DNA of 64,000 bases from Patescibacteria group bacterium (GCA_023379265.1 JAMCUI010000009.1:252908-316907), one strand, 5' to 3'; counted from the first letter of the stretch, positions 6,798-53,527 are shown. The notes: generated by a model from the letters alone, not told the origin. Made by a program: numbers and translations.

Positions 6798-6830
6798 ACT
6801 TGATATTTTGATTAGGTGTTTAGAGTAAAA

Positions 6831-8510: not shown

Positions 8511-8515
8511 ACAGT

Positions 8516-12790: not shown

Positions 12791-12794
12791 TATA

Positions 12795-16084: not shown

Positions 16085-16086
16085 AC

Positions 16087-21822: not shown

Positions 21823-22593
21823 ATGACAAAAAATACCAAAGAAAAGAAAGTTGTAGTTGTTATGCCGGCATACAATGCCGAAAAGACAATAAAAAAAACC
21901 TACAATGATATCCCCCAAGACGCAGTAGACGAAGTGATAGTTGTAGATGATGATAGCGCTGACAGTACTGTGAAAATTGCCAAAAAGTTGAAACTTGCCG
22001 TATTTGTTCACGATAAAAATTTGGGATACGGAGGGAATCAGAAGACGTGTTATAGGGAGGCTTTGAGGAAAAATGCCGATATAATAGTGATGATTCATCC
22101 TGATTATCAGTATGATGCCACTTTGACTAAATATCTTGTACAACCAATCATTGACGGAAAGTTTGATATCATGTTAGGAAGCAGGATAAGAAGCAGAAAA
22201 GAGGCTCTTTCAGGAGGCATGCCTTTGTATAAATACATAAGCAACAGGGTTCTTACACTTTTTGAGAATATCATTCTTGATCTGAATCTTTCCGAATACC
22301 ATACAGGTTTTCGTGCTTTTAGCAGTAATGTTCTGAAGAGGTTGCCTTTAGATAAATTTTCAGATGACTTTGTTTTTGACCAGGAAATTCTAGTTAGTGC
22401 CCATGCTGCTGGTTTTACCATTGGAGAAATTGCAGTACCCGTGCGCTATTTTCCTGAAGCATCTTCAATAAATTTTATCCGTTCTACTAGATATGGAATA
22501 ATGATATTGTATACGCTGGTGAAGTATTTACTTAAAGATTACGGCATGGATTTTCCAATATTCCATTTTAAGGGAAAAAGTGAAAAAAACTGA
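21823..22593 (+). CDS. Polyprenyl-phosphate glycosyltransferase, GT2 Dpm1/GtrB/CsbB-like
   Basis: 'VVVVMPAYNAEKTI', 'VIVVDDDSADST' and 'GSRIRSRKEALSGGMPLYKYISNRVLTLFEN...YHTGFRAF' (the ArnC/GtrB-type R-x-R...S/T region). Immediately followed by a YfhO-like membrane protein. Confidence 0.65.
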   Translation: MTKNTKEKKVVVVMPAYNAEKTIKKTYNDIPQDAVDEVIVVDDDSADSTVKIAKKLKLAVFVHDKNLGYGGNQKTCYREALRKNADIIVMIHPDYQYDATLTKYLVQPIIDGKFDIMLGSRIRSRKEALSGGMPLYKYISNRVLTLFENIILDLNLSEYHTGFRAFSSNVLKRLPLDKFSDDFVFDQEILVSAHAAGFTIGEIAVPVRYFPEASSINFIRSTRYGIMILYTLVKYLLKDYGMDFPIFHFKGKSEKN

Positions 22594-32955: not shown

Positions 32956-34236
32956 TCAGAATCTTTTAAGAAATCTTTCTATCATCCTTTTGGTATATTC
33001 GATCATATCAGAGTTTATTCCTGGAAAAACTCCCAACCAGAAAGCTCGCGCCATCACTTCGTCGGCATTTACTATTTTTCCTGCAGTTTTATATTTTATT
33101 TTCAGGTACGCCGGATGCCGCAGAAGGTTTCCTGAAAAGACATTTCTGGTACCTATTCTTTCTTTTTCCAGATATTCAGTAAGCTGATTTCTGGTAAACG
33201 GTGCTTCCTTTCTGACAAGAAGTGGAAATCCAAACCAGCAAGGATCTTCTTTATCTGTTGGAGTAAGAAGTTCGAAGAATTTGATATATTTACTGAAGAA
33301 TTTATATAACTTTTTATAATTCTCTTTCCTTATTTTTATAAAATACGGCAGTTTTGAGAGTTGAGCCAAGCCAATGGCGGCTTGGAAATCCGTAAGTTTC
33401 AGATTGAAACCTATTTGTGAATAGATATATTTATGGTCGTAGCCTGCCGGCAACTCTCCCATCTTCCAGCCAAACCTCTTGCCGCATGTATCATCTTTTC
33501 CCGTATCACACCAGCAGTCCCTGCCCCAGTCGCGAAATTGCCTGATTGAGCGGTGGATAAGGGGGTTATTGGTAACTACCGCTCCTCCTTCACCCATTGT
33601 AATCTGATGAGCAGGATAAAAGGAGAATGTGGATATATCGCCATATGTTCCCACCATTTTCCCGTCATAACGGCTTCCCAAGGCATCGCAGCAGTCCTCA
33701 ATCAACCATAGATGGTATTTTTTGGCTAGTGCCACTATTTTATCCAGATTATAGGGATTACCAAGGGTGTGAGCGACCATTATCAGTTTTGTCTTTTTGG
33801 TTATCGCTTTTTCGATTTTGTCCGTGTCGATGTTAAGAGAAGAAAGTTCGGCGTCCACAAAGACAGGCGTCATGCCAAAGATGATGCCGGGGTTGACGGT
33901 CGTGGGGAAGGCGACAGCGCCGGTAATGAACTCATCACCTTTTTGTAAACGCCTTTCACCAAAAACTTTTGATGTAAGGGAAAAAAAGGCAGCCAGATTG
34001 GCAGAAGAGCCTGAGTTTACCAATGAAACATAACGTACTCCAAGGAAACGCGCGAATTCCCTTTCAAACTCTTTGGCAAATCGTCCTTCTGTCCACCAAC
34101 CATCTTTTGCTGCTGAGACGGCATTTTCTATTTCGTTTTCGTCAAATACTTTTCCAGAAGCTGGAATATAAGTCTTTCCCGGTATAAATGTTGTATCGTA
34201 AGGCATAGAGTATATTAACTTTGTATTATAATACAT
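32956..34236 (-). CDS. ddhC: CDP-6-deoxy-D-xylo-4-hexulose 3-dehydrase (E1; PMP-dependent Fe-S enzyme, DegT/DnrJ/EryC1 superfamily)
   Basis: Collinear with Salmonella RfbH: 'PASGKVF', 'GSSANL', 'AFPTTVNP', 'LIMVAHTLGN' (His in place of the PLP lysine), 'LIEDCCDALG', 'FYPAHQITMGEGGAV' and 'RDWGRDCWCDTGKDDTCGKRFG' (Fe-S cysteine cluster). Confidence 0.85.
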   Translation of the reverse strand: MYYNTKLIYSMPYDTTFIPGKTYIPASGKVFDENEIENAVSAAKDGWWTEGRFAKEFEREFARFLGVRYVSLVNSGSSANLAAFFSLTSKVFGERRLQKGDEFITGAVAFPTTVNPGIIFGMTPVFVDAELSSLNIDTDKIEKAITKKTKLIMVAHTLGNPYNLDKIVALAKKYHLWLIEDCCDALGSRYDGKMVGTYGDISTFSFYPAHQITMGEGGAVVTNNPLIHRSIRQFRDWGRDCWCDTGKDDTCGKRFGWKMGELPAGYDHKYIYSQIGFNLKLTDFQAAIGLAQLSKLPYFIKIRKENYKKLYKFFSKYIKFFELLTPTDKEDPCWFGFPLLVRKEAPFTRNQLTEYLEKERIGTRNVFSGNLLRHPAYLKIKYKTAGKIVNADEVMARAFWLGVFPGINSDMIEYTKRMIERFLKRF

Positions 34237-34265
34237 GGCAATTACTTATAGAAATTAATTTCCAG

Positions 34266-34973
34266 ATGGGAACTGCTTCACTATCAATAATTTTGCCGGT
34301 ATTCAATGAAAAAGAAGTTATAGAATATGTCCTTTCGGAATGGAAAACGCTTCTCGAAAAAAACAAAATCCCTTTCAATTTCGTCATTTGTGAGGATGGC
34401 TCAACTGATGGAACAAAAGAATTATTAAAAAGACTAAAATTGAATTATCCTATTATCCTCAATCAGAAAAGGAAAAGGAGAGGTTACGGTAATGCAGTAC
34501 TTGATGGTATAAAGTCTGCATTGTCAGAGTTTTTACTTTGTGTCGATTCTGACGGTCAATGTGATCCAGAAGATTTTCTTAAGTTTTGGAAGGAGAGAAT
34601 GTCGGCAGACATACTGATTGGGAGGAGACGGGAAAGGTCCGATCCTCTACAAAGAAAAGTATTTTCTAATTTATTTAGAATAGTCCATAAAACACTTTTT
34701 ACAACGTCTATACATGATCCATCTACTCCCTTTGTCTTATTTAGAAAGAAGGTAGTTACTCCCTATATAAATTATTTGACTTACTTAAACGAAGGATTTT
34801 GGTGGGGTTTTATAGCTATGGCTGTTAAGGCTAAATTATCCGTAAATGAAATACCGATTAACCATCGTAAAACACTATGTAGTGTCAAGACAAAGGTCTA
34901 TACACTAGATAAAATTCCGTCTATTGCTTTCAGAAATCTGTTAGGACTTTTTCGTTTATACTTTACAAAATAA
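34266..34973 (+). CDS. Polyprenyl-phosphate glycosyltransferase, GT2 Dpm1/GtrB-like
   Basis: 'SLSIILPVFNEKEVI', 'FVICEDGSTDGT', 'VDSDGQCDPED' and 'GRRRERSDPLQRKVFSNLFRIV...DPSTPFVLFRKKVV' (ArnC/GtrB-type). The track ORF starts at a TTG at 34221; the ATG at 34266 is preferred. Confidence 0.6.
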   Translation: MGTASLSIILPVFNEKEVIEYVLSEWKTLLEKNKIPFNFVICEDGSTDGTKELLKRLKLNYPIILNQKRKRRGYGNAVLDGIKSALSEFLLCVDSDGQCDPEDFLKFWKERMSADILIGRRRERSDPLQRKVFSNLFRIVHKTLFTTSIHDPSTPFVLFRKKVVTPYINYLTYLNEGFWWGFIAMAVKAKLSVNEIPINHRKTLCSVKTKVYTLDKIPSIAFRNLLGLFRLYFTK

Positions 34974-34986
34974 ACGCTTATTGATT

Positions 34987-36045
34987 TCAAAAAGTAATTA
35001 TTTTATTTTTTAAGCCAAGTTTTTTTATATCTTTTAGAATTTCCTTCTTAAAGCGGAATGAGGAGACGAGTATCGGTTCTTTGTAATTCTCTAGATTTTC
35101 TGGCGGGATTATATCAATTCCTTTTAATTTTTTTCCTTGAAGATTTGTATTCCTATCTGCTAATTTAATAGTTTTTTGGGCAAGATTAGTGGTTGAAAGT
35201 AAGCGTTCGGTAAGAGATCCTGCACCCCAAACAATTATTCTTTCAGGAGCGGCATCAATAACCCGGTTTATCCTATCCATTTTTGATTGTGATAATTGGA
35301 TATACTTGACCATAGAATTTCTTACGCCTCCATCTTTTTGCCACACTGAATAGATAGCCTTCCCGTCTGAAGATACATACAACGGAAAAAATTCATACAT
35401 TAGAGAATGAAGTGAGGATTTGCCAAAAAAATTGATATGTTCCAGTGAAAATTCTCCAAAAGGTTCTTCGAAATTTCTGTAAAAATTATCTGCATCAGGT
35501 ACGCATATGAATATTTTCCCTCCATCATTTATAAGACTGCCCAGTATGTGTATGGCTAAAGTGACTTTATCCAGATGTTCAAGAACGGCCGAAAGAATAA
35601 GGAAGTCATATTTTTTAGTGCCTGATTTCAGGTTGAACAGATCATTTGTTTCTACAGTAATGCCGTATTTCTTTTTTGCCATTTCTTTGCAGCGGGGAGC
35701 GGGGTCGACTCCGGAAAGGTTTTTGAAACCGTCTGTTTTGAGGAGATAAAGGAGATGTCCGGTTGAGCAGCCTATGTCCATGATGCGGTCTGATTTGTTT
35801 ATAAATTGTTCAATTATTTTAACGCAGTCTTTATGCAACTGGAAGTCCCGCGTGTCTTCATATTTTGACATTTTTTCATAATATTTGGCATAGTAAGTCT
35901 GTCTTGGGGAATTATTTACAAAAACAAATCCGCACCTGTTACATAAGGCAATATTATGTATTAGACCACCAACAAATTTCTGCGTAAACAATACGGTATT
36001 ATTTCTGCTGGTACAGATAGGACATGGTCTAACAGTCTGTCTCAT
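34987..36045 (-). CDS. NDP-hexose C-methyltransferase family protein (TylC3/EvaC-like): Zn-ribbon + class I SAM MTase + C-methyltransferase C-terminal domain
   Basis: N-terminal 'CPIC...CNRCGF' four-Cys ribbon. 'IMDIGCSTGHLLYLL...LSGVDPAPRCKEMAKKKYGI' SAM fold. C-terminal 'IIVWGAGSLTERLL...ADRNTNLQGKKLKGIDIIPPENL' resembles the Methyltransf_14 domain. Confidence 0.6.
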   Translation of the reverse strand: MRQTVRPCPICTSRNNTVLFTQKFVGGLIHNIALCNRCGFVFVNNSPRQTYYAKYYEKMSKYEDTRDFQLHKDCVKIIEQFINKSDRIMDIGCSTGHLLYLLKTDGFKNLSGVDPAPRCKEMAKKKYGITVETNDLFNLKSGTKKYDFLILSAVLEHLDKVTLAIHILGSLINDGGKIFICVPDADNFYRNFEEPFGEFSLEHINFFGKSSLHSLMYEFFPLYVSSDGKAIYSVWQKDGGVRNSMVKYIQLSQSKMDRINRVIDAAPERIIVWGAGSLTERLLSTTNLAQKTIKLADRNTNLQGKKLKGIDIIPPENLENYKEPILVSSFRFKKEILKDIKKLGLKNKIITF

Positions 36046-36977
36046 TTATTCTTGTTTCCAATAATTTTATCGATGATATAAGTCGGCCTGGCTTTGGTTT
36101 CTTCCACTATTACCTGTATATATTTGCCTATTATACTGATGGCCAAAAGCTGTATTCCTCCAAAAAAGACGATTGAAACTAATATGGTGACAGCACCCTT
36201 TATTGGGTTGCCGTAAATAATACTTATGAGGATATATAAGATAATAAAAAGAAATGACAAGATTACCAATATGAATCCGAAATAAGCCATCAGATCCAAT
36301 AGTAGGTATGAAAATCCAAATACACCCCTTTCAGCATGCTTAAAGTAATCGAGTATGTTATAAGAACTTTTACCTTTTTTTCTTTTGGGCCGGTCGTACA
36401 AGACATAAGCCGTATCAAATCCTACCCATGCCCTGAGTCCTCTGAAAAATCTGTATTTTTCTGGTAATGATTTGATAGCCTGCTGCACCTTTTTATCCAT
36501 AAGTCCATATCCGCTGGCGTTTACCGGAATTTCGATATTTGATATGAGCTTAAAAATTTTGTAGAAAAGCTTTCTGAAAAATATGGTGATAAAATAGTCA
36601 TCAATCTTTTTATACACTCCAACAACAACCTGGTAACCTTTTTCCCATCTTTTAATAAATTCCTTGATGAGATCCGGAGGGTCTTGAAGGTCTGCAGCAA
36701 AGCCGATTATTGCCTCACCTGTAGCCTGATCATATCCCGCCTGAGCAGAAGCTTCCGCGCCGAAATTTCGTGAAAGGAATATTCCTGTAACCCTTCTATC
36801 TTTTCTGACTATTTTGGAGATTATGTCCCTGGAGTTGTCGCTGCTGCCATTATCCACAAAAACAAATTCATAAGAATATTTGGGAATCTGCTTTGTTACT
36901 CTCAATAGGGTTTTATAAGCATTTTCCAAATTTAATTCTTCGTTGAAGCAGGGGATGACAAAAGAAATTTTCTTCAT
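36042..36977 (-). CDS. Membrane-anchored polyprenyl-phosphate glycosyltransferase (GtrB/ArnC-like GT2 with two C-terminal TM helices)
   Basis: 'ISFVIPCFNEELNL', 'FVFVDNGSSDNS', 'FAADLQDPPDLI' and two C-terminal hydrophobic helices ('FILVILSFLFIILYILISII' and 'VTILVSIVFFGGIQLLAISIIG'). Confidence 0.7.
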   Translation of the reverse strand: MKKISFVIPCFNEELNLENAYKTLLRVTKQIPKYSYEFVFVDNGSSDNSRDIISKIVRKDRRVTGIFLSRNFGAEASAQAGYDQATGEAIIGFAADLQDPPDLIKEFIKRWEKGYQVVVGVYKKIDDYFITIFFRKLFYKIFKLISNIEIPVNASGYGLMDKKVQQAIKSLPEKYRFFRGLRAWVGFDTAYVLYDRPKRKKGKSSYNILDYFKHAERGVFGFSYLLLDLMAYFGFILVILSFLFIILYILISIIYGNPIKGAVTILVSIVFFGGIQLLAISIIGKYIQVIVEETKARPTYIIDKIIGNKNK

Positions 36978-36990
36978 ACGAGGTAAAAAT

Positions 36991-37809
36991 TTATTTTATG
37001 AGATTTCGGATTCTTTTTACTGCCGTCTTAAAACCAGCAAAACCGTCCGTATATCCAAGCCAGATTTCAGGGACGATCATTCCTTTATATTTTTTTAATT
37101 TCTCAAAGATTGGTTTGAAATTTATTTCCCCATCGCCAATTTGCACACCCTCGCCATCCTCACCTGTTGCATCTGCGATGTGAAGATGAGCCATATTCTG
37201 GATAAAAATCTCAAATTGAGCCATAAAATCCTTTTTTGCATAATTACAATACAATTTGGAGTGAGAAATGTCGTAGCAGATTTTTCTTTTTGTAGTTTTG
37301 CAAAACTCACCGATTTCCTCACCATCCATAAATATATTCGAGTTCCATTGCCCACCGAAATACCAGGGAAGAGGAGGCAGATTTTCTACCAGAATTTCAG
37401 AATTTTCGGTTCGTAAGAGAGATAGACTCTTTATGAGCGTTTCCATCCTGTAAATGTTATTCTTGGGTATATCTTTTTCATATGACATGCCTCCGGGATG
37501 CAAGATAAAAATATTTCTTTCATTAGTGAAATAGCTGAAAAATTTTTCGCTTTTAGAAATTATATTTTGCAGAATATCAAGTGATTCATTTAGAGGTAAT
37601 ACCTGATTCTCCGGTTTAATGTTTGAGATGTCTATCAAGTGTCCGCTCCAAAATTCGGGGAGATGGATTATGGCAGGAATAGGATATTTTATTTTTGGGG
37701 AAAAAGGGTAATCTGCATCTTTGTCAGAGAATTGGAATTCCACAAATTCTGGATCAAGTTCCATGACTTGGTCAAAATCTGAAAATCTGGTTTTCAAACC
37801 TATTTTCAT
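36991..37809 (-). CDS. Xylose isomerase-like TIM-barrel protein (sugar phosphate isomerase/epimerase family)
   Basis: 'NMAHLHIADATGEDGEG' (metal-binding H-x-H-x-x-D type) and 'MIVPEIWLGY'. 272 aa. Confidence 0.5.
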   Translation of the reverse strand: MKIGLKTRFSDFDQVMELDPEFVEFQFSDKDADYPFSPKIKYPIPAIIHLPEFWSGHLIDISNIKPENQVLPLNESLDILQNIISKSEKFFSYFTNERNIFILHPGGMSYEKDIPKNNIYRMETLIKSLSLLRTENSEILVENLPPLPWYFGGQWNSNIFMDGEEIGEFCKTTKRKICYDISHSKLYCNYAKKDFMAQFEIFIQNMAHLHIADATGEDGEGVQIGDGEINFKPIFEKLKKYKGMIVPEIWLGYTDGFAGFKTAVKRIRNLIK

Positions 37810-37815
37810 ATCTAA

Positions 37816-38862
37816 TCATTGAATATCGCTATGGATGAAATAATCATTTTTAGCTATATTTCTTTTTGTTTTTTTACCTATAAGCTTATCAATGAGCTGG
37901 GGACTGAGACCTTTACCCGGGCTTTTTACATCAATCATTCTGTGAGTAATTACTTCTCCTGCCTTTATTGGGACTGCGGCCACCAGACTTTTGCCAAAGA
38001 CTTCCCTAGTCAATATTTCCCCTCTGGCTATAGTTCTTATGCCGTTTCCTATTGCCACTTCTGCGACTCGAATTCTGTCCACCATTTTCTTTAACCCTTC
38101 GGGCATGATAGATAAATTATGATCGGGTCCGTCCATAGAGCGGTCAAGCGTAAAATGCTTCTCAATAATGTTTGCTCCCAATGCTACTGCACAGACTGCA
38201 ACAGTGATTCCTCTTTCATGTCCAGAGTAACCTACCGGTACTTTATACGTTTCTTTTAAGACATTAATCATCTTTAAGTTAACATCCTTGAAATTGGCCG
38301 GGTAAGTACTTACGCAATGCATAAGTGCGAATTTAGCTTTGTTTTTGTTGAGAAATTTTACCGTATAGTCTATTTCTGACGGATTTGACATACCTGTTGA
38401 AAGTATTATAGGTTTTTTAGTTTTAATAATTCGATGAATTAATGGTATATTTGTTAGATCTCCAGAGGCGATTTTATATAGAGGAACTTGAAGGGATTCT
38501 AAAAATTCTACGCTTTCCAAATCAAATGGTGTCGCAAAAAAAATAATCCCTATTTCGTCACAGTACTTTTTCAATTCTATATATTCACTTTTATCAAGTT
38601 CATATTTCTTAAATATGGAAAATAGATATACTGTTGATTGACTATCCTGGTTGGGATCGTTGTATACATCTTCTTTGTATATCGCCTTCAAATCCCTTTT
38701 TTGAAACTTTACCGCATCAGCGCCGCTGTCTTTAGCCAGTTTTATCATTTTCTTAGCCAGCGAAAGATTACCGTTATGGTTTAAGCCTATTTCTGCCACT
38801 ACAAATGTAGGATGCCCTTCACCTATCAGTCTTCCGTTTATATTCAGAGTACGGTCATTCAT
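37816..38862 (-). CDS. NeuB-family nonulosonic acid (sialic/pseudaminic/legionaminic-type) synthase with C-terminal SAF domain
   Basis: 'GHPTFVVAEIGLNHNGNLSLAKKMIKLAKDSGADAVKFQKR', 'LMHCVSTYPA' and 'GYSGHERG', plus a C-terminal antifreeze-like domain 'VAAVPIKAGEVIT'. Confidence 0.8.
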   Translation of the reverse strand: MNDRTLNINGRLIGEGHPTFVVAEIGLNHNGNLSLAKKMIKLAKDSGADAVKFQKRDLKAIYKEDVYNDPNQDSQSTVYLFSIFKKYELDKSEYIELKKYCDEIGIIFFATPFDLESVEFLESLQVPLYKIASGDLTNIPLIHRIIKTKKPIILSTGMSNPSEIDYTVKFLNKNKAKFALMHCVSTYPANFKDVNLKMINVLKETYKVPVGYSGHERGITVAVCAVALGANIIEKHFTLDRSMDGPDHNLSIMPEGLKKMVDRIRVAEVAIGNGIRTIARGEILTREVFGKSLVAAVPIKAGEVITHRMIDVKSPGKGLSPQLIDKLIGKKTKRNIAKNDYFIHSDIQ

Positions 38863-38940: not shown

Positions 38941-39828
38941 TTATGGATTAAGGTTCTTTTTTTTGAAAATAGATTTGTTATCTAAATAATAACGGTACAG
39001 TTGATCAATTGCTGATGTGAAAGGAGTAAATTTGAAACCTGATAATTCAGACAGTAATCTCTGATTATTACATGTATATTCCATATTATATCCCTGTTTT
39101 AAAATCTTTATGGGATGAGGATTATGTGTAGTTTTTTTAACTATCTCAGCCAGCGAGATTAAATCAATTTTTTCGCCTTTTCCGGCATTGTAGTGAGTAT
39201 ATTTCATGTTGTGAATAAGACAATATTCCACAATTTTTACCAGATCGTCAATGTAAATATAATCGAAAAAGACATTCTGTCTTATAACAACTGGTAAACC
39301 CAGAATTGACCGGCAGATAGCCTGGGAAATAAATCTTCTGGTATAATCCTCGTATTTTCCATAAACTCCAAAAAGTCTCAATACTACCGCATTGTCTGTT
39401 TTCTTCATAATTCTGGAAATGGTATATTTCAGTAGTCCATAATCATCTTTTGGAAGCGATAGACCGCTTTCCTTTTCAGATACATTGATAATTGGTTTTG
39501 ATTTATCGTATTCCGCTCCTGATCCGAAAACTATCACTTTGGTATCAGGATGCCTTTGTTCAAGAAGATTGTAGAAAATAGTCAAATTTTTTCCCAACAT
39601 ATCAGAAGAAAATACTCTTTTATCAGATCCTACATATAAGGCTGCATGAATTATGGCGTCGGGATTGTGTTCTTTCAAATATTCTTTGACTTTTTTCCTG
39701 TCAAGAAGATCTAGTTGCGAGTGTGATGGCGATATGGTGGAGAATTTATGTTTCAATTGTTCTGCAAGGTTATGCCCGATAAAGCCGTTTGCGCCCGTAA
39801 TCAGAATTTTTAAGTTTCTTTTATTCAT
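38941..39828 (-). CDS. NAD(P)-dependent sugar-nucleotide epimerase/reductase (RfbJ/RfbS-size; possible CDP-4-keto-dideoxyhexose reductase)
   Basis: 'KILITGANGFIGHNLAEQL' Rossmann motif. 295 aa. 'HAALYVGS'. Confidence 0.55.
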   Translation of the reverse strand: MNKRNLKILITGANGFIGHNLAEQLKHKFSTISPSHSQLDLLDRKKVKEYLKEHNPDAIIHAALYVGSDKRVFSSDMLGKNLTIFYNLLEQRHPDTKVIVFGSGAEYDKSKPIINVSEKESGLSLPKDDYGLLKYTISRIMKKTDNAVVLRLFGVYGKYEDYTRRFISQAICRSILGLPVVIRQNVFFDYIYIDDLVKIVEYCLIHNMKYTHYNAGKGEKIDLISLAEIVKKTTHNPHPIKILKQGYNMEYTCNNQRLLSELSGFKFTPFTSAIDQLYRYYLDNKSIFKKKNLNP

Positions 39829-39831
39829 ATC

Positions 39832-41013
39832 TCAGACGGCAATGCAGATGGTATCTACAAGTTCATTTGAATAATGTCTAACAAAAAGTTTATATGAAGG
39901 ATTAAGTTTTTTAATAAGAAGTATAAGTTTCCAAAGATCAGCGGCATGGTGGTAAATGGAAATAATAAGTTTAGGTTTTGTTTGTCTGATTATTTTTTTT
40001 GCACCTAACAGCGCTTCCCTTTCAACTCCTTCTATATCCATTTTAATAATAGTAGGTTTTGGTTTATCTCGGAAGAAAAAATCTAATGATGATAGTCTAA
40101 TAGACTTTGTTTTTCCGGCGTTTCCCGCAGCGTGATTATTTGATAAATTTTTCTTAATAATTCGTGAGTCAACTGATGAATTCTCACTAAAATCTATTGT
40201 GCCTTCTTTATAAAACACACCTCTTTTTATTGGAATTATTCTTTTGTGATCAATTTTCCTGGAAATTTTTTGAAGTTTTATATAGTTTGCAGTATCAGGC
40301 TCAAAGGAGTAAATTTTCATGAATTTGTTTTTTACTGTTTTACAAAAACTAAGAACGGTATCACCGTCAAAGGCACCGCAGTCAGCCAGAATTTCCTGAG
40401 AATTTAATTTTAATATACTTTCGTCAAAATAAGTCTTTTTTGACGATTGTGCTAACTTTATATATTTTTTATCCAGTGATAACCTGAATTTGATTAGATT
40501 CTCAAAAATTTTCTTTGAGTTGCTTTCCGTCAGTATTTGTTCAGTTTGCAATATGTCTATTAAGTTTCGCTTGGAAAATAAAGAGTTAAACGTATTTTCA
40601 TATTCTGATGAGATAAATATATCAGGATACAGAATATTTAGATAACCCAGAGGATAAATATACTTAAAACCTGCCTTTTTAAGAAGAGAATAAATTTCAG
40701 ATTCATACATCAGGCTGGCAACAAGAATCGGTGTGGCAAGATACAGTTTTTTGGCTGTGACAAACGAAATGATTTTTGCTTCGCCAATTTTCCTGTCATG
40801 GAGTTTTGGATTGTTATCGACTATCGCTGAAACCTTGATATTTTTTGCCTGGAGATTTTCTACAAATATTTTTCCCATTCTGGCTGCACCAAACACGACA
40901 CAGGGGATATTCCTATTGCATATTAATTCCCTTGGAGGAAAGTGTTCTTGAAGCTGTGAAAGATAGTAATTTTTATTCTTTTCCAATAAATATTTAAGGC
41001 TATTTTTTGTCAT
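39832..41013 (-). CDS. FkbM-family SAM-dependent methyltransferase with N-terminal Rossmann-like domain
   Basis: 'ILADCGAFDGDTVLSF', 'YSFEPDTANY' and 'TIIKMDIEGVEREALLGAKKII' FkbM signature. The N-terminal 'PCVVFGAARMGKI' domain is extra. Confidence 0.65.
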   Translation of the reverse strand: MTKNSLKYLLEKNKNYYLSQLQEHFPPRELICNRNIPCVVFGAARMGKIFVENLQAKNIKVSAIVDNNPKLHDRKIGEAKIISFVTAKKLYLATPILVASLMYESEIYSLLKKAGFKYIYPLGYLNILYPDIFISSEYENTFNSLFSKRNLIDILQTEQILTESNSKKIFENLIKFRLSLDKKYIKLAQSSKKTYFDESILKLNSQEILADCGAFDGDTVLSFCKTVKNKFMKIYSFEPDTANYIKLQKISRKIDHKRIIPIKRGVFYKEGTIDFSENSSVDSRIIKKNLSNNHAAGNAGKTKSIRLSSLDFFFRDKPKPTIIKMDIEGVEREALLGAKKIIRQTKPKLIISIYHHAADLWKLILLIKKLNPSYKLFVRHYSNELVDTICIAV

Positions 41014-42814
41014 AAGAAAGTGGCTTGGCTATCATATTTTTGAAAAAAATTTCCCTTGGCAGATAAGGATACATATCCTCAAGCGGTTTTGAAATCATAC
41101 TGCCGTCTGGTAAAACTTCAGAACCGATTCTGGGTATAATTTCAACAGAAGGCGCCATGTTTACACGGCAAAGTACCGGACCTTTGTGTTCTAGAACTTT
41201 TTTTATACCTCTATGTAAATCGTTATGATTTTTTATTTCGATAAAGTGCATTCCGTAAGCGTAAGCAATTTTTGAAAGGTTAGGTATAACTACTCCTGAG
41301 TTGGCATCTGAGGCAAAAAACCTCTGGCCTGCAAATTTTTTTTGAGTATTTCTTATGGATAAATAACCCTTATTGTCATAAACAAAAATCTTTAGTGGTA
41401 GTTCGTAAGTGATGAGAGTCTGGAGTTCATGAATATTAAACTGTAGTGAACCGTCACCCACAATCACAATAACTGGTTTTTTACCGGAGGCGATACTGGC
41501 GCCGATACCTGAAGGTAGTTCATAACCCATCGGGCCGCAGCCGATATTGGCTAGGAATCTTTGGTTTTTTTTCAGTCTAGCCATAAGGAAGGCGGTGGCT
41601 GAAGTGACACCGCTGCAGGTAGTTAAAATATCTCCTTCCTTAAAATAAGAAGATAGTGTATGCATAAAAAAGTAGGGGTTGACATATTTATCGCCATCTT
41701 TTAGGTATTGCGGAAGAATTTTTGGAAAGAGCGTTGTCCACCTTTTACACTTGGTTACCCAAACATCATACTCTGGTAATTTTGATTTTTCAGATTGTTG
41801 GATTAATTCTTCGATAAAAACTTTTGCATCCGCTTCTACTTTCATATATGGATTGACTGTTTTTTTATTCAGTTCATTTGCATCAATATTTACAAAAATA
41901 ATCTTTGCTTCTCTAGCAAAAGCCTGATAATTAAAACCGGTGGTTTTGAAGTTTAACCTGGCGCCAATACTGAGAACTAAATCACTATTTTGAATTATAA
42001 AATTTGCGGTTCTGTCCCCGATTATGCCGGGGTTTCCGAAATACAAAGGATATTCTTCATACATCAGGTCATTGGCGCACGAGGCCGTCAATACCGGTAT
42101 TTTTAGTATATTTACCAATTTTAGAAATGACTTGTAAGCTCCAGAAATCCTAATTCCGTTTCCAGCCAGGATGACTGGCCGGTTGGATTTTTGGAGTAAT
42201 TTTAATATTTCGTTGATAGAGTCAGAGATACTTTTTGAAGTGGTTCGATTAGTCTCTAATTCTTCAGGATCAAATTTTACCATCGATTTTTCCTCTATCT
42301 GGTGCGCCTGGATATCCAACGGAACATCAATCCAAACGGGTCCTGGGCGGCCTGTTGTGGCAAGATAAATTGCTTTTTCCAGATGATAGCGGATGCTTTG
42401 CGGATCTGTAATTCTTACAGCATATTTTGTAACGGGTTTCACGATATCAGTGATATTCAGTTCCTGTTCACCAAGCTGGCGCAAATCTGAGCCTTCCGCG
42501 GAAATTTCTGTCCTGACCTGACCGGATATATAAAGTGCCGGGACTGAATCCTGCCATTGGCAGACGATTCCAGTAAGTGAGTTACTGCCTCCGGGACCTC
42601 CCGTGACTACACAGACACCCAGTTTTCCTGTAATCTTGGAGTAAGCTTCAGCAGCCATGGCAGCTGCCTGTTCGTGGAAGGTGCAATAGTATTTTATTTT
42701 TTTACTTCTGCCGAATGAATCATTCAGATGCATTGCCAAACCGCCGGAGATCATAAAAATATCTCTGACGCCGTAATTTTCCAGGAATCGGACAATATAG
42801 TCACTGAGTTTCAT
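41000..42814 (-). CDS. ThDP-dependent acetolactate-synthase-like enzyme (YerE-like sugar-nucleotide C-branching carboligase candidate)
   Basis: 604 aa. N-terminal Pyr domain 'GGLAMHL...HEQAAAMAAEAY...GVCVVTGGPGGSNSLTG'. C-terminal ThDP-binding 'VIVIVGDGSLQFNIHELQTLITYELPLKIFVYDNKGY' (GDG...N motif). Adjacent to the ddh genes and an SDR. ThDP-enzyme family confidence is about 0.85; the specific role about 0.5. Confidence 0.6.
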   Translation of the reverse strand: MKLSDYIVRFLENYGVRDIFMISGGLAMHLNDSFGRSKKIKYYCTFHEQAAAMAAEAYSKITGKLGVCVVTGGPGGSNSLTGIVCQWQDSVPALYISGQVRTEISAEGSDLRQLGEQELNITDIVKPVTKYAVRITDPQSIRYHLEKAIYLATTGRPGPVWIDVPLDIQAHQIEEKSMVKFDPEELETNRTTSKSISDSINEILKLLQKSNRPVILAGNGIRISGAYKSFLKLVNILKIPVLTASCANDLMYEEYPLYFGNPGIIGDRTANFIIQNSDLVLSIGARLNFKTTGFNYQAFAREAKIIFVNIDANELNKKTVNPYMKVEADAKVFIEELIQQSEKSKLPEYDVWVTKCKRWTTLFPKILPQYLKDGDKYVNPYFFMHTLSSYFKEGDILTTCSGVTSATAFLMARLKKNQRFLANIGCGPMGYELPSGIGASIASGKKPVIVIVGDGSLQFNIHELQTLITYELPLKIFVYDNKGYLSIRNTQKKFAGQRFFASDANSGVVIPNLSKIAYAYGMHFIEIKNHNDLHRGIKKVLEHKGPVLCRVNMAPSVEIIPRIGSEVLPDGSMISKPLEDMYPYLPREIFFKNMIAKPLSYDKK

Positions 42815-42898: not shown

Positions 42899-43696
42899 CT
42901 AGTGGATAGTCCAGCCGCCGTCAACAAGAAGATTGTGTCCGGTAATGTATCCCGAGATGTCCGAAGCCAAGAATAGAGTTGGTCCGACTAAATCATCTGG
43001 ACTTGCCATTCTACCCAATGGAGTAAGTTTTTCATAATTTTTGATAAAGTCGGGATTTTGATTGGCTTTTACTCCGCCAGGACTTATACAATTGACTCTG
43101 ATGTCGTATTTCCCAAAATATGAAGCGAAATATTTTGTCATCATATTTACTCCACCTTTGATAAGAGCATAAGGGGAAGGTGAGGTCATTTCCGTATTGT
43201 TATAAATGGAGAATGTCGGTGCTACCGTACCATATATGGAACTGAAATTTATAATGTTTCCTCCTTGTGGAGATTTATTTTTCATATAAACGGCAATTTT
43301 TTGAGTACAGTGGTAATAACCGCCCAGATGCATGGCAAGATTTTTCTCTACAGATGAGTAGGGCATTTCTTCAACGTTTTTTGACCAATCCTCGGTTTTG
43401 GGCCAGCTGCAGTTGATAAAAACCTCAATTTTTCCCATTTTCTGGCAGGAAAATTCAATTAATTCATCAATTGATTTTTCTTTGGTCGTATCGAATTTAT
43501 AAAATATCACTTTATTTTTTGAAGATGTATTCACCTTTTCCAGAAATTTCTGATCAGTATTTACGTCGGCAATGATAAGTTTAGATCCAGAAGAGGAAAA
43601 TCCTTTAGCGAGAACTTTACCGATAAGTCCCATTCCGCCCACAATGAGTATAGGTTTATCCTGCAGATCTGAGAAATTATATTTATTTTTATCCAT
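42899..43696 (-). CDS. Short-chain dehydrogenase/reductase (SDR), YerF-like reductase candidate
   Basis: 'ILIVGGMGLIGKVLAKGF' (TGxxxGxG-like), 'NFSSIYG' and 'SPYALIKGG' (YxxxK). 265 aa. Confidence 0.7.
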   Translation of the reverse strand: MDKNKYNFSDLQDKPILIVGGMGLIGKVLAKGFSSSGSKLIIADVNTDQKFLEKVNTSSKNKVIFYKFDTTKEKSIDELIEFSCQKMGKIEVFINCSWPKTEDWSKNVEEMPYSSVEKNLAMHLGGYYHCTQKIAVYMKNKSPQGGNIINFSSIYGTVAPTFSIYNNTEMTSPSPYALIKGGVNMMTKYFASYFGKYDIRVNCISPGGVKANQNPDFIKNYEKLTPLGRMASPDDLVGPTLFLASDISGYITGHNLLVDGGWTIH

Positions 43697-43733: not shown

Positions 43734-44744
43734 TCAAACTATTACACTATCCATATCGATTATTCTTTTATACTTAATCGAATCATGTGTTGCTAAAAGA
43801 AGTCTCAAGTTGGCAATTCCATCTTCAAGAGATATGGATGGATGCTTTTTATTTTTGACCTTATCAATAAATTCTTTCACTTCATCATAAAACATATTAT
43901 TTCTATTAAAACCTTTTGAATAGTCGATTACTTGTTTTCTTGGCTGATCTTCTTTTTTGTTTTTGTTGAAAATATATAATTTATTGGCAAAAAAATCTAG
44001 TTCTATACGGCCCTTATCTCCAACTATTTCCCAATATCTTTTAGGCGGGTCAAGAATATAGTCAAGATGTATTTCGGCGAGAGTGTTACTACTATATTTC
44101 ATAAGTATTTCGACATTGTCTTCAGTATTTACTCCTGTAAGTGATTTTTTACCGTTCAGAGCAATTACACACGTGGGTAGACCGAAATACCAATAAAGTA
44201 TATCCAGATCATGACAGAGAGTGTTAATCGGACCTCCGCCCAATTCTTTATTTGCCGCATAGCTTTTCTTGTAATTTTCCCAAGGATGCCAGTTTGGTAG
44301 AAACTCGCCCCAGATTACGCGTGAATATACGGGATTTCCTATAATTTTATTCTTAAGAATTTTTTTGATTCTTATAAAGGCCGGGTGATAACGGTGCATA
44401 AAGCCAATTTGGACAATTAGTTCTTTTTGTCTGACAATTTCCTGCAGTTTTTTTACTCCTTCTGTGCTATCTGATAAAGGTTTTTCTATAAAAAGGTGAC
44501 AATCTGCCTGGGCCAGTTTATTTGCCAGGTCTATATGGAGTGAGGAAGGGTTAGTGATAAAAGCAACGTCGGGTTTTTGCTTTATAGCATCTCCGAAATC
44601 CGAAAAGGTTTTAATCTCTTGTCTGACAAATCTTAACGGTTGGGTAGTGGTGCGGTAGGCGATAATATCCTTTTCGCCCATTTTTAATAGATTGTTTAAA
44701 TGTTGTTGTCCGATTGATCCTAGACCGCAAAAAAGAAATTTCAT
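43734..44744 (-). CDS. Gfo/Idh/MocA-family NAD(P)-dependent oxidoreductase
   Basis: 'MKFLFCGLGSIGQQHLNNL' and 'LFIEKPLSDSTEGVKKL' (EKP motif). 336 aa. Confidence 0.7.
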   Translation of the reverse strand: MKFLFCGLGSIGQQHLNNLLKMGEKDIIAYRTTTQPLRFVRQEIKTFSDFGDAIKQKPDVAFITNPSSLHIDLANKLAQADCHLFIEKPLSDSTEGVKKLQEIVRQKELIVQIGFMHRYHPAFIRIKKILKNKIIGNPVYSRVIWGEFLPNWHPWENYKKSYAANKELGGGPINTLCHDLDILYWYFGLPTCVIALNGKKSLTGVNTEDNVEILMKYSSNTLAEIHLDYILDPPKRYWEIVGDKGRIELDFFANKLYIFNKNKKEDQPRKQVIDYSKGFNRNNMFYDEVKEFIDKVKNKKHPSISLEDGIANLRLLLATHDSIKYKRIIDMDSVIV

Positions 44745-45716
44745 TTATTTTGAGTAATAATTGGTATACCAGTTATAGATATTTTTCATGGTATTTTTGA
44801 TCGTATACTCCGGTTTCCAGCCGACTGTTTTTCTGATTTTAGTCCAATCAAGCGACTGGTAAGGAATCTCGTTTTTGGCAGTATTTATAATCTTATATTT
44901 TATCTTCATATCCAAAACTTTTTCCAAAAGTCCAATGAGATCTAACACTGAAAACGAATCATCTGAGCCGAAATTGTAGGCTTCGCCTTTGGTCTTTGCT
45001 ATATTTTGCGCCAAAAGCAGATAGCCCCTGACGACATCTTTAACATATAAATAATCCCTTATATATTTGCCATTGCTTCTAATAAGAAATGTTTGTTTCT
45101 TAACTATTGCTTCCATTATTCCGGGAATTATCCTGGAAAAATGCATATCTCCCTCACCGTAAATATTGCCAAAGCGAGTGATTGTTGTTGGTAAACCGTA
45201 TGTTTTGTAATAAGAATAGGAGATCAGGTCCGCAGATGATTTTGAAACCTCATAGGGATGGTCGCCACGGAGGGGATCGGATTCAGAATATTTTAATTGA
45301 GAATTGAGAATTTTACCGTATGCCTTGTCGGAAGACGCAACGATAATAGCATGAGTTTTACCAAATAGCCTTGTTGCTTCAAGGAGATTTATTGTACCGA
45401 CTATGTTTGAGTAAAGTGTGGTTTTGGGGTTTTTATAAGCGATATCTACTAAAGGTTGGGCGGCTAGATGAAAGATGCAGTCTGGTTTGACATTGAAAAC
45501 CATTTTTTCTACTGCTTTATAACCTGACAGTTCAATCCTGATGATCTTTGTTTTTCGTTCAAGACCCTGAGTAGCAAAATAGGAATTGGTTGGTATATTA
45601 TGGTGAGTGGTGACGGTGATGTCTGCTTTTGTTTTTGCCAATTCTTCAGCTAGATGCGATCCGACAAATCCAGTCGCTCCGGTTATAAGTATGTTTTTAT
45701 AGTTGAAATTTGTCAT
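44745..45716 (-). CDS. ddhB: CDP-glucose 4,6-dehydratase
   Basis: 'KNILITGATGFVGSHL', 'FHLAAQPLVDIAYKNPKTTLYSNIVGTINLLEA', 'SSDKAYG' and 'PYEVSKSSADL' parallel RfbG. The ATG at 45716 is 1 nt after the ddhA stop; the track ORF extends further. Confidence 0.8.
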   Translation of the reverse strand: MTNFNYKNILITGATGFVGSHLAEELAKTKADITVTTHHNIPTNSYFATQGLERKTKIIRIELSGYKAVEKMVFNVKPDCIFHLAAQPLVDIAYKNPKTTLYSNIVGTINLLEATRLFGKTHAIIVASSDKAYGKILNSQLKYSESDPLRGDHPYEVSKSSADLISYSYYKTYGLPTTITRFGNIYGEGDMHFSRIIPGIMEAIVKKQTFLIRSNGKYIRDYLYVKDVVRGYLLLAQNIAKTKGEAYNFGSDDSFSVLDLIGLLEKVLDMKIKYKIINTAKNEIPYQSLDWTKIRKTVGWKPEYTIKNTMKNIYNWYTNYYSK

Positions 45717-45717
45717 C

Positions 45718-46497
45718 TCACTTCCATACCTTCCACGGCGGATTTTCGCTGTTCCAGATGCCGTTGAGCTCGTCATATTCCTTGTTAGTGTCGACAGCAT
45801 ACCAGAAGCCGGTATGCTTGTAGATGGAAAGCTGAGAAATTTTGGCCAGTCGGGTGAGGGCCGCATGTTCCAACTCTGCCGGTTTCTGGTACTTAAAATA
45901 ATCCCTCTTGAAGACCATATATCCGCCGTTTGCCCAGTCGGACATATAAGGTTTTTCCTTAAACTCCACGATTTTGCTGTCGTTTCCTACTTTTACCACT
46001 CCAAACTTAAATTTTGGATGGATTCCAGTGATGGTTCCTATCGTGTTTTGTTTCTTATGGAACTGCACCAGTTTTCCGATATCAAGGTTCGTCACCCCGT
46101 CTCCATAAGTCACCATAAAATTTTTATCACTTTTAGGGATATAACTTTCACAAAGAAGAATCCTTTCTCCCGGAAGGGTATCCATACCCGTATCTACAAA
46201 AGTGATTTTGAAATCGTCTATTTCTTTTCTGTGTTCCCAGTGATAGGCGGTTTTGTGGGTTTTTGTCTCGAGTGTAAAATCTGTGGTAAAAGCTTTCTGG
46301 TTGAGGAAAAAATCCTTGATATAGTTGGCCTTATAACCTAAAGCCAAAATAAATTCGTTAAAGCCGTAATGGGCGTATATTTTCATAATATGCCAGATTA
46401 TTGGTTTTCCGCCAATATTTATCATCGGTTTTGGTTTGTATTCAGTTTCCTCTTTGAGTCTGGTACCTGTACCACCGCATAAAATTATTGTTTTCAT
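45718..46497 (-). CDS. ddhA: Glucose-1-phosphate cytidylyltransferase
   Basis: 'MKTIILCGGTGTRLKEETEYKPKPMINIGGKPIIWHIMKIYAHYGFNEFILALGYK' is near-identical in pattern to RfbF '[42 protein letters not shown]'. Confidence 0.85.
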   Translation of the reverse strand: MKTIILCGGTGTRLKEETEYKPKPMINIGGKPIIWHIMKIYAHYGFNEFILALGYKANYIKDFFLNQKAFTTDFTLETKTHKTAYHWEHRKEIDDFKITFVDTGMDTLPGERILLCESYIPKSDKNFMVTYGDGVTNLDIGKLVQFHKKQNTIGTITGIHPKFKFGVVKVGNDSKIVEFKEKPYMSDWANGGYMVFKRDYFKYQKPAELEHAALTRLAKISQLSIYKHTGFWYAVDTNKEYDELNGIWNSENPPWKVWK

Positions 46498-46677: not shown

Positions 46678-48393
46678 ATGGGTACTGACGGTAAAATGCA
46701 TATTACTGTTTTGGGCATCCATGACGGGCACAATAGTGGAGCTGCTTTAGTGCGAGACGGTAAGGTTCTCTCGGCCATATCGGAGGAGAGACTGAATAAT
46801 ATAAAGAATTATTCCGGAGTGCCAGTACTTTCCATTGCCAAGGTTTTTGAAATTGCCGAAATACCTCCTGAGGAAACCGATCTTATCGCAATAGGATGTT
46901 TCGTCCGTGTGGGGCCACCCTATGCTGATATAAATTGGTTAGGTAGAATTCAGGTAGAATTGGCACCATATCTTCATTCACACTTATTTGCTAAAACATA
47001 TGTGAAATTGCTGCACAAATTCAGACAAACAGGTCGATTGAAGGATTTATTTGAAAGTTTGGGAATAGGGGATAAAAAAATCATATTTATAGAACACCAT
47101 CTAAGTCATGCAGCATGTGCTTATTACGGGTCAGGTTTCAAGGATGAGACACTGATTCTCACTCTTGACGGGTCAGGGGATGGGCTATCAGCGACTGTCT
47201 CAGTAGGAAAAGACTGTAGAATCAAAAGGATTGCCGAGACGACATTCTATGACAGTTTGTCAAACAATATATACAGTGAAATCACAGGGTACTTGGGGAT
47301 GAAGAGGTGGGAACATGAATACAAGGTGATGGGTCTTGCTCCATATGGTAGAGATGACGGTTTGGTAGATGAATTTAAAAAAATTGTCAGGATAAATCCG
47401 GCAAAAACTCTGGAGTTTCAGAATATTTTCGGCGCCTATTTATACGATGTTACCAAAAACTTGGTTCCAATTTTAGCCGGGCGGCGATTTGACAATATTG
47501 CTTGGGCGACTCAGAAATATTTTGAAGATTTGGTTTCCCAGTGGGTAAAAAATGCGATAGATCAGACCGGTGTTCATAATGTAGTCTGTAGTGGCGGGTC
47601 ATTTCTGAACGTTAAGGCGAATAAGGTGATAAGGGAATTGCCTGAAGTGAAAAAAGTCTTTTTTTACCCGGCCGCTGATGATGGCGGGACTCCGGCGGGG
47701 GCTGCCATTGAAGGGTATGTCAGGTTGTGCAGGGAAAAGAAAATAAAACCGGTGGTTGAGCCGATTGGTGATTTATATTTTGGTCAGCAATATTCTGACG
47801 AAAAGATAAGCGCTATTTTGAAAAAATCAAATTGGAAAAAAAAGGCAGTAAATTTAGGAAAAGGGATAGCAAAAGAGGTTGCTAGATTACTAGGTAAAGG
47901 AAAGATTGTCGCCAGGTTTGCCGGACGGGATGAGTGGGGTCCAAGAGCATTGGGAAATCATAGTATATTGGCAGATCCCCGCGATCTGCGTGTAATTTCA
48001 AAACTGAATTTTGCTATCAAACAGAGAGATTTCTGGATGCCTTTTGCCGCGTCCATTCTGGAGGAGGATGCTGGAGAATATTTGAAGGATTATAGGGGAC
48101 AAGCAAGATATATGATTGAAGCTTTCGATACAAAAGAAAAAGCAGCTGAAATTACGGCAGCTCTCCATCCTTACGACCTGACATGCCGGCCTCAGACAGT
48201 AAACGATTGGAATCCCGGTTACAGAAGTATATTGACGGAATTTAAAAAACTGACGGGAGTCTCAGGAATTCTAAATACTTCATTTAACCTGCACGGGTTT
48301 CCAATGGTGGGTACTCCTGACGTTGCTCTTTCCACTTTTGAAAATTCAGGATTGGATGCGCTTATTCTTGAAAATTTCTTAATTACTAGATGA
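46678..48393 (+). CDS. NodU/CmcH-family carbamoyltransferase
   Basis: 'ITVLGIHDGHNSGAALVRDGKVLSAISEERLNNIK' N-terminal signature. 571 aa; 'EHHLSHAACAYY'. Confidence 0.7.
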   Translation: MGTDGKMHITVLGIHDGHNSGAALVRDGKVLSAISEERLNNIKNYSGVPVLSIAKVFEIAEIPPEETDLIAIGCFVRVGPPYADINWLGRIQVELAPYLHSHLFAKTYVKLLHKFRQTGRLKDLFESLGIGDKKIIFIEHHLSHAACAYYGSGFKDETLILTLDGSGDGLSATVSVGKDCRIKRIAETTFYDSLSNNIYSEITGYLGMKRWEHEYKVMGLAPYGRDDGLVDEFKKIVRINPAKTLEFQNIFGAYLYDVTKNLVPILAGRRFDNIAWATQKYFEDLVSQWVKNAIDQTGVHNVVCSGGSFLNVKANKVIRELPEVKKVFFYPAADDGGTPAGAAIEGYVRLCREKKIKPVVEPIGDLYFGQQYSDEKISAILKKSNWKKKAVNLGKGIAKEVARLLGKGKIVARFAGRDEWGPRALGNHSILADPRDLRVISKLNFAIKQRDFWMPFAASILEEDAGEYLKDYRGQARYMIEAFDTKEKAAEITAALHPYDLTCRPQTVNDWNPGYRSILTEFKKLTGVSGILNTSFNLHGFPMVGTPDVALSTFENSGLDALILENFLITR

Positions 48394-52689: not shown

Positions 52690-52699
52690 AAAGGAAAAG

Positions 52700-53524: not shown

Positions 53525-53527
53525 GAT

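Follow-up and report, generated by a model that had tools for sequence, protein, structure and literature searches.

A 64,000-nucleotide stretch of the genome of a Patescibacteria group bacterium, a member of the candidate phyla radiation (CPR), was analysed (GCA_023379265.1 JAMCUI010000009.1:252908-316907; hereafter the whole stretch is called the window). It encodes E1 (DdhC/RfbH/AscC), the pyridoxamine 5′-phosphate (PMP)- and [2Fe-2S]-dependent 3-dehydrase of cytidine diphosphate (CDP)-4-keto-6-deoxyglucose (32956..34236, minus strand, 426 aa), within a minus-strand sugar-nucleotide operon that spans 46497 to 32956. Its gene content suggests that the product is a 3,6-dideoxyhexose with an acyl branch at C-4, belonging to the yersiniose/erwiniose/caryophyllose class, a reading to which we assign a probability of about 0.6. 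The same value applies to its core, the passage from E1 to a YerE-like enzyme; the roles of a NeuB-type donor synthase and a TcaB9-like methyltransferase are less certain. Most likely the operon encodes a Patescibacteria variant of an already known pathway for acyl-branched 3,6-dideoxyhexoses, from which it differs in these two enzymes.

E1 and a YerE-like carboligase

Judged from its sequence, the open reading frame (ORF) at 32956-34236 is a genuine E1/RfbH with its catalytic histidine and [2Fe-2S] site intact. It scores 635.3 bits on the NCBIfam equivalog NF011936 (RfbH; cutoff 423) and aligns gap-free over 407 residues with E1 of Yersinia pseudotuberculosis (PDB 3bcx, 478 bits), confirming the identity proposed in a first-pass annotation of this DNA. 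A ColD-type enzyme was ruled out by the lower score to ColD, a relative without an iron-sulfur cluster (190 bits), and by the intact cluster cysteines. The catalytic residue was located using PDB 3bb8, the Yersinia H220K mutant, which reads SFYPAKHITMG and marks the position at which the lysine that binds pyridoxal 5′-phosphate (PLP) is replaced. Because H210 of the window protein (SFYPAHQITMG) aligns with Yersinia H220, it is taken as the catalytic histidine, and it is invariant in an alignment of the window E1 with seven relatives (70-77% identity) and the Yersinia enzyme (alignment A1). The first-pass annotation had placed this histidine in the motif AHTLGN, which is wrong, as the histidine there is H156. 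The iron-sulfur cysteines C183, C241, C243 and C251 (C-X57-C-X1-C-X7-C), whose Yersinia counterparts we take to be C193, C251, C253 and C261, are likewise invariant in alignment A1. Of the cysteines earlier read from C-W-C-x7-C and EDCC, the first one of EDCC is not conserved, and relatives read EDSC. Among the matches listed, the closest relatives (70-80% identity) belong to CPR bacteria of the Roizman-, Gottesman-, Shapiro- and Microgenomates-type. The ORF start at 34236 is probably too far upstream; homologues of E1 start near M11 (position 34206), possibly the true start.

The same operon encodes a thiamine diphosphate (ThDP)-dependent enzyme (41000..42814, minus strand), a putative YerE-like carboligase with TPP_enzyme_N, _M and _C domains and a GDG...N motif visible in the sequence. 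Its best PDB match is 8rph (JanthE; 416 bits over residues 2-596), which has been described as a YerE-like enzyme (PMC12188165). The best acetolactate synthase reaches 247 bits, and the protein falls below every acetolactate synthase equivalog cutoff. In the reaction of YerE, ErwE and MMAR_2332, an alpha-keto acid supplies an acyl group that is attached to C-4 of CDP-4-keto-3,6-dideoxyglucose (PMC9306805). This acceptor is exactly the product of E1, and YerE-like ThDP enzymes are its published consumers in the biosynthesis of yersiniose, erwiniose and caryophyllose (PMC9306805). We therefore propose that the window enzyme attaches an acyl group, as a branch, to C-4 of the CDP-4-keto-3,6-dideoxyhexose supplied by E1. 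Its gene shares the operon with DdhA-like and DdhB-like genes, and E1 lies beyond an opposite-strand glycosyltransferase family 2 (GT2) gene. The first-pass annotation had suggested a second branching chemistry carried out by a methyltransferase next to E1. A second branching chemistry does appear to be encoded, but its main agent is the ThDP enzyme, which had been overlooked, and the methyltransferase is not an isolated partner of E1.

The clusters for yersiniose (YerE/YerF), erwiniose (ErwE/F/I/J) and caryophyllose (MMAR_2331-2333) contain the same set of ddh genes, ThDP enzyme, reductase and keto-acid enzyme (PMC9306805). This set has been formulated as a 'unifying scheme' comprising ddh genes, a ThDP enzyme, an NAD(P)H reductase, a donor-acid aldolase and sometimes an S-adenosylmethionine (SAM) methyltransferase (PMC9306805), and more than 200 acyl-branched sugar clusters have been predicted in silico (PMC12247030). 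A SAM methyltransferase is present in the R. palustris cluster (PMC9306805), as it is in the window operon. The window differs from the YerE-type clusters in its host, a member of the Patescibacteria, in its keto-acid candidate, which is a NeuB-type synthase condensing phosphoenolpyruvate (PEP) rather than a pyruvate aldolase, and in its methyltransferase, which is TcaB9-like and points to C-methylation.

Genomes were scanned for E1 loci, one genome per species, and the best 80 of at least ~600 loci, each with up to 10 kb of flanking sequence, were combined with four CPR loci to give 84 surveyed loci (1.46 Mb in total). At least 5 kb was available on both sides of E1 in 56 of these, and in 42 a ddhA-to-E1 block was flanked by 2 kb or more at each end. 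The loci span CPR bacteria, Acidobacteria, Chloroflexi, Planctomycetes and methanogens. A YerE-like ThDP gene was found in 37/84, at a median distance of 1.9 kb from E1, and DdhA-like homologues adjoin E1 in 57-59. NeuB homologues are present in 15 loci, 13 of which also carry the ThDP gene (p = 3e-4), and a BphI/BphJ-like aldolase-dehydrogenase pair (ErwI/ErwJ type) is present in eight, all with the ThDP gene (8/8, p = 9e-4); NeuB and the BphI/BphJ pair never occur together (0/84). The methyltransferase family was detected in 16 loci and, since 13 of them also carry the ThDP gene (p = 1.5e-3), it is linked to the ThDP module. Homologues of the RmlD-like short-chain dehydrogenase/reductase (SDR) of the operon occur in 11 loci, mostly together with the ThDP gene, and those of its polyprenyl-phosphate GT2 in 30.

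Split transketolase genes were found in 9-10 of the 84 loci, one of which has a ThDP gene. Pairs of this type lie beside E1 in L002, L003, L013 and about seven other loci, and 8/9 lack a YerE-like gene, which is suggestive of another ThDP-dependent route to branching, outside Streptomyces; the known split-transketolase branching candidates are all placed in Streptomyces by a published review. Counting YerE-like enzymes and split transketolases, about half of the E1 loci pair E1 with a ThDP-dependent enzyme that forms C-C bonds. Metagenome-assembled genomes (MAGs) of methanogens (Methanoregula, Methanobacteriaceae; L036, L053, L072, L074) encode E1 at 52-56% identity and L036 also has YerE-like and BphJ-like genes, a combination that suggests branched dideoxy sugars may be made in archaea. 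Three loci labelled 'uncultured Gammaproteobacteria' (L007, L009, L010) encode an E1 70-73% identical to the window protein within CPR-like neighbourhoods, and their taxonomic labels look doubtful.

Electron supply to E1

In classical clusters ddhD, which encodes the dedicated reductase E3 (DdhD/AscD), adjoins ddhA. A Pfam scan of the window covered almost every ORF of 90 aa or more that is not nested within another gene and detected no protein with the Fer2, FAD_binding_6 and NAD_binding_1 architecture; ORF 21823-22593 was scanned against NCBIfam only, and four large ORFs without a library scan are paralogues of PMT_2-type membrane glycosyltransferases. As a positive control, searches were performed with the only E3-like gene found among the related loci (L082 3357-4319, from a Francisella MAG), whose matches include benzoate dioxygenase reductase and further Fer2-FNR reductases, which is of the ferredoxin-NADP reductase (FNR) type and which the same approach does detect in its own locus. 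With this query, neither tblastn nor phmmer produced a match, whether in the window itself or in the 10 kb on either side (L086, L087). The absence of E3 from the 64 kb, noted in the first-pass annotation, was thus borne out and extends 10 kb beyond each end. The Gfo/Idh/MocA protein, which carries Pfam GFO_IDH_MocA domains, is indeed not of the E3 fold.

The earlier view that a missing E3 is an anomaly did not survive the survey. E3 is absent within 10 kb of E1 in 83/84 of the other loci, L082 being the sole carrier, and the CPR relatives L002-L005 contain the same module, with E3 domains missing from the precomputed Pfam lists. There is also a published precedent in SpnQ, a TDP-sugar 3-dehydrase of Saccharopolyspora spinosa, likewise an E1-type PMP/[2Fe-2S] enzyme without a dedicated E3, which is served by general ferredoxin/ferredoxin-reductase or flavodoxin/flavodoxin-reductase pairs (PMC8987622). 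The two enzymes differ in that SpnQ belongs to an antibiotic pathway, where its substrate is a dTDP-2,6-dideoxy sugar, whereas the window E1 fits the RfbH equivalog and sits with CDP-glucose-type genes. With the Yersinia pseudotuberculosis and Salmonella E1-E3 systems the window E1 shares the gap-free alignment, the catalytic histidine and the C-X57-C-X-C-X7-C pattern, and DdhA-like and DdhB-like genes are present in its operon; it departs from them in having no E3 gene in 84 kb, in the distance of E1 from ddhA/ddhB and in its CPR host.

Candidates for a local electron donor were considered and rejected. Across the 84 loci no ferredoxin or other electron-transfer-like family was conserved near E1 (flavodoxins were not searched for). 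Matches to the plant-type ferredoxin motif were all junk reading frames except the Francisella E3, and the few 4Fe-4S motif matches lie in large proteins (372-581 aa) rather than small ferredoxin-like carriers. A flavoprotein at 20350-21816 (PRK07208 amine-oxidase-like) was discarded as a surrogate reductase, its homologues lying near E1 in only 4-5/84 loci; this FAD-dependent amine-oxidase-like type recurs in L002, L003, L047 and L066 at 37-38% identity. Homologues of the Gfo/Idh/MocA protein and of a PtmA-like SDR, also encoded in the operon, lie near E1 in 2 and 6 of the 84 loci, respectively, and neither was retained as an E1 partner.

The textbook E1/E3 pair therefore appears to be an exception, with E3 nearby in 1/84 surveyed E1 loci. 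From this frequency it follows that C-3 deoxygenation in most organisms is probably served by housekeeping electron carriers.

Candidate donor synthase, methyltransferases and proposed pathway

The candidate keto-acid enzyme is a NeuB-family PEP-condensing synthase with an SAF domain (37816..38862, minus strand; PF03102 306.7 bits, PF08666 38.4 bits). It falls below the curated equivalogs, scoring 372.6 bits on the NeuB model (cutoff 399.65) and 283.3 bits on the PseI model (cutoff 340.25), and no CMP-sugar synthetase, NeuC or acetyltransferase was found among the scanned window ORFs. Given these two observations and its co-occurrence with the ThDP gene, we infer that the NeuB homologue joins PEP to an aldehyde and that the resulting 3-deoxy-2-keto acid is the donor for the ThDP enzyme. 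A legionaminic or pseudaminic acid pathway was set aside, as the genes for NeuA, NeuC and the acetyltransferase are absent and E1 fits RfbH rather than LegC (174 bits, cutoff 420). Literature searches for a connection between YerE and NeuB, or between Patescibacteria and dideoxy sugars, returned nothing relevant.

The methyltransferase lies at 34987..36045 (minus strand, 352 aa) and, as first described, is separated from E1 by a GT2 gene on the plus strand (34266..34973, its start also given as 34221; Glycos_transf_2, 75 bits), the gene call for which is 235 aa in L001. The three-domain layout proposed for this SAM-dependent enzyme is supported by conserved cysteines 8, 11, 35 and 38, which suggest a zinc ribbon, by a Methyltransf_23 match (73 bits) and by a C-terminal Rossmann-like domain. 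Against the Methyltransf_13/14 models, which it had been expected to match, the protein formally fails: PF08421 gives no match even at E <= 1, and PF08484 gives 17.3 bits (cutoff 23.5). PF08421 is also absent from the 25 Pfam families matched by most of 36 relatives, and PF08484 is matched at E <= 1 by 26/36 members of the family (best E 1e-11).

Comparisons over the full length of the protein point to the nucleoside diphosphate (NDP)-sugar C-methyltransferases. A profile of the family detects MtmC (E 1.5e-15 over profile positions 30-335), TcaB9 (E 2.5e-11) and KijD1 (E ~1e-11). E202-H203 align with TcaB9 E224-H225 and H157 aligns with H181, all invariant in the family alignment (A2), and H181, E224 and H225 are the residues named in the TcaB9 mutant entries 4e2w, 4e2y and 4e2z. 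An AlphaFold (AF2) model (pLDDT 93) was compared with the PDB using Foldseek, and the top 18 matches were all MtmC, KijD1 or TcaB9 (E 3e-19 to 2e-15, TM ~0.5-0.58), with ordinary single-domain methyltransferases ranking only below them. The TylC3-type assignment of the first-pass annotation thus holds in that the protein is a remote full-length structural relative of TylC3/TcaB9-type enzymes, but not at the level of the Pfam domain models. With TylC3, TcaB9, KijD1 and MtmC it shares the three-domain layout, the full-length profile and fold, and the His and Glu-His residues. It differs in its low identity (12-18%), in being ~60 residues shorter, in lacking a PF08421 match, in the assignment of its C-terminal domain to PF22674 rather than PF08484 and in its likely substrate, a CDP-sugar rather than a dTDP-sugar. 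Taken together, these observations indicate that it probably works like an NDP-sugar C-methyltransferase and belongs to a distinct, mostly CPR, subfamily. Methylation could take place at C-3 or C-5 of the ring, or at the carbon beside the new side-chain ketone.

A second methyltransferase of the operon belongs to the FkbM family (39832..41013, minus strand; Methyltransf_21/TIGR01444). An alignment at 32% identity (E 8e-5) pairs its residues 39-117 with residues 271-346 of the protein at 34987-36045; both enzymes therefore contain a common Rossmann-like domain (PF22674 in precomputed annotations), N-terminal in the FkbM enzyme and C-terminal in the TcaB9-like enzyme. In L004 a domain of this type is fused to radical SAM enzymes.

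The remaining minus-strand genes can be placed in a pathway of the yersiniose type. The gene run starts at 46497, with E1 and the methyltransferase at its distal end, and nine same-strand genes plus the opposite-strand GT2 lie between E1 and ddhA/ddhB. The first gene encodes a DdhA-like glucose-1-phosphate cytidylyltransferase (45718..46497; Pfam NTP_transferase), whose best NCBIfam match is TIGR02623 (256.8 bits, equivalog cutoff 300), followed by a DdhB-like CDP-glucose 4,6-dehydratase (44745..45866), best matched by TIGR02622 (212 bits, cutoff 278). Because the DdhB ORF overlaps DdhA by 149 nt (45719-45866 region), its true start is probably further downstream; the DdhB domain begins at about residue 54-58. 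Together, DdhA and DdhB would produce CDP-4-keto-6-deoxyglucose. E1 would then take off the 3-hydroxyl, drawing two electrons from general cellular ferredoxin or flavodoxin systems, as SpnQ does, with no dedicated E3, and the ThDP enzyme would decarboxylate an alpha-keto acid and place the acyl group on C-4 of the keto sugar. The 3-deoxy-2-keto acid donor would be formed from PEP and an aldehyde by the NeuB homologue, a role filled by BphI- or HpaI-type aldolases in known clusters. A Gfo/Idh/MocA oxidoreductase (43734..44744; Pfam N- and C-terminal domains) may help to prepare the NeuB substrate.

Reduction of the branch carbonyl would fall to an SDR, for which there are two candidates. An RmlD/epimerase-like extended SDR (38941..39828; Pfam Epimerase and RmlD_sub_bind) is a candidate YerF-type reductase, and a classical SDR of the PtmA/PRK09186 type (42899..43696; adh_short_C2, 140 bits), which scores 250 bits on NF006619 (cutoff 255) and 197 bits on PtmA, could act as a ketoreductase of the side chain or in preparing the substrate. 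The TcaB9-like methyltransferase would C-methylate a carbon beside a keto group, on the ring or the new side chain, and the FkbM enzyme would add a further methyl group. Finally, a polyprenyl-phosphate GT2 (36042..36977; Glycos_transf_2; PgfS/ArnC-like, at 223 bits to PgfS and 131 bits to ArnC, both under their cutoffs) probably transfers the completed sugar to a lipid carrier. The operon also encodes a xylose-isomerase-like TIM-barrel protein (36991..37809; AP_endonuc_2, 55.9 bits), which has no homologue in the other surveyed E1 loci. A scan for promoters and terminators around E1, the GT2 and the methyltransferase gave counts not above the shuffled expectation.

Competing explanations and wider significance

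Several points weigh against the proposed pathway. Since DdhA and DdhB miss their equivalog cutoffs, the pathway could use a different nucleotide carrier or hexose. Since the opposite-strand GT2 parts E1 from the other genes, its co-transcription with them is presumed rather than established. The likeness to YerE was measured against a single YerE-like enzyme, JanthE, whose physiological substrate is unknown. The donor role of NeuB is drawn only from its co-occurrence with the ThDP gene and its mutual exclusion with BphI/BphJ, and that exclusion (0/8 against 15) is not significant alone (p = 0.34). Moreover, the search for E3 covers ~84 kb of the genome, where the contig itself runs to 154 kb and a related NCBI contig to 355 kb.

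This last point leaves room for a dedicated E3 (DdhD/AscD) encoded elsewhere in the genome, with the E1/E3 paradigm unchanged. We consider this improbable: CPR genomes are small (~1-1.5 Mb), all four CPR loci with precomputed Pfam lists are without E3, and the 83/84 related loci that lack it within 10 kb include the 42 with at least 2 kb beyond the ddhA-to-E1 block at either end. The opposite possibility, that E1 needs no reductase and acts either like ColD (hydrolytic, glutamate-regenerated) or as an aminotransferase, draws on the finding that SpnQ has aminotransferase activity when its reductase is absent (PMC8987622). No such transferase activity is reported for E1 in the same paper, all four [2Fe-2S] cysteines are invariant across the CPR relatives and the Yersinia E1, and the protein scores 478 bits to E1 against 190 bits to ColD, which together make a reductase-free E1 very improbable.

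Two further explanations concern the division of labour within the operon. NeuB, the PtmA-like SDR, the Gfo/Idh/MocA protein and the TIM-barrel protein might form a separate pathway of the nonulosonic acid type that merely shares the operon with the dideoxyhexose genes, consistent with the scores of NeuB on the NeuB (372 bits) and PseI (283 bits) models and with the resemblance of the SDR to PtmA of the Campylobacter flagellin-glycan locus. This appears unlikely, though less so than the other alternatives, as the window contains no CMP-nonulosonate synthetase, NeuC-type epimerase or acetyltransferase, NeuB lies under both equivalog cutoffs, and NeuB is significantly tied to the ThDP gene and never found with the BphI/BphJ pair. 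Alternatively, the TylC3-type methyltransferase could be the main branching enzyme, acting at C-3 or C-5 of CDP-4-keto-3,6-dideoxyglucose, with the ThDP enzyme and NeuB belonging to other pathways. Its fold and Glu-His dyad do match those of sugar C-3 methyltransferases, and on chemical grounds the E1 product would offer an acidic C-3 methylene beside the 4-keto group. However, the ThDP enzyme is linked to E1 far more often (37 versus 16 loci), a YerE-like gene is present in 13/16 of the loci carrying the methyltransferase family, and the protein neither matches PF08421 nor reaches the PF08484 threshold. As C-methylation and ThDP-dependent branching are compatible, methylation is better regarded as a sub-step than as a rival, and we doubt that the methyltransferase is the main brancher.

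We retain the acyl-branched 3,6-dideoxyhexose as the most likely product of the operon. A more far-reaching combination can be put forward only tentatively, and it is less probable than the pathway itself: Patescibacteria and many uncultured lineages would reduce E1 without an FNR-type E3, possibly by means of a low-potential fermentative ferredoxin; a NeuB-type synthase would provide the YerE-like enzyme with a long 3-deoxy-2-keto acid; and C-methylation by the TcaB9-like enzyme would then give the CPR cell surface a higher-carbon dideoxy sugar not described before, C-methylated and branched at C-4.

The operon lies within a large glycan-biosynthesis locus that occupies the window (GC content ~0.37). 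Seven tandem paralogous GT-C (PMT_2/ArnT-like) membrane glycosyltransferase genes (6816-19316; mutual identity 27-40%) are accompanied by a short PMT_2-like ORF lying among them (8516-9385, 289 aa). Also present are genes for a Wzm/Wzt-type ABC transporter (52619-54817), GT10/GT11 fucosyltransferase-like proteins, a carbamoyltransferase (46678-48393) and an asparagine-synthase homologue (49580-51532). Because glycosylation genes run on for 10 kb past both ends of the window (L086, L087), the glycan locus exceeds 84 kb, a large share of a CPR genome of ~1-1.5 Mb.

The YerE-like and TcaB9-like enzymes are of biocatalytic interest for making tertiary alcohols and for C-methylation. If the link to NeuB is real, the 'unifying scheme' of acyl-branched sugars would gain a new route to the donor acid, and unusual branched sugars would be predicted on ultra-small episymbiotic bacteria, the glycans of which are essentially unknown. 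For the family as a whole, the survey points to the use that E1 is put to in the surveyed lineages, namely its pairing with the making of C-C bonds by ThDP-dependent enzymes.

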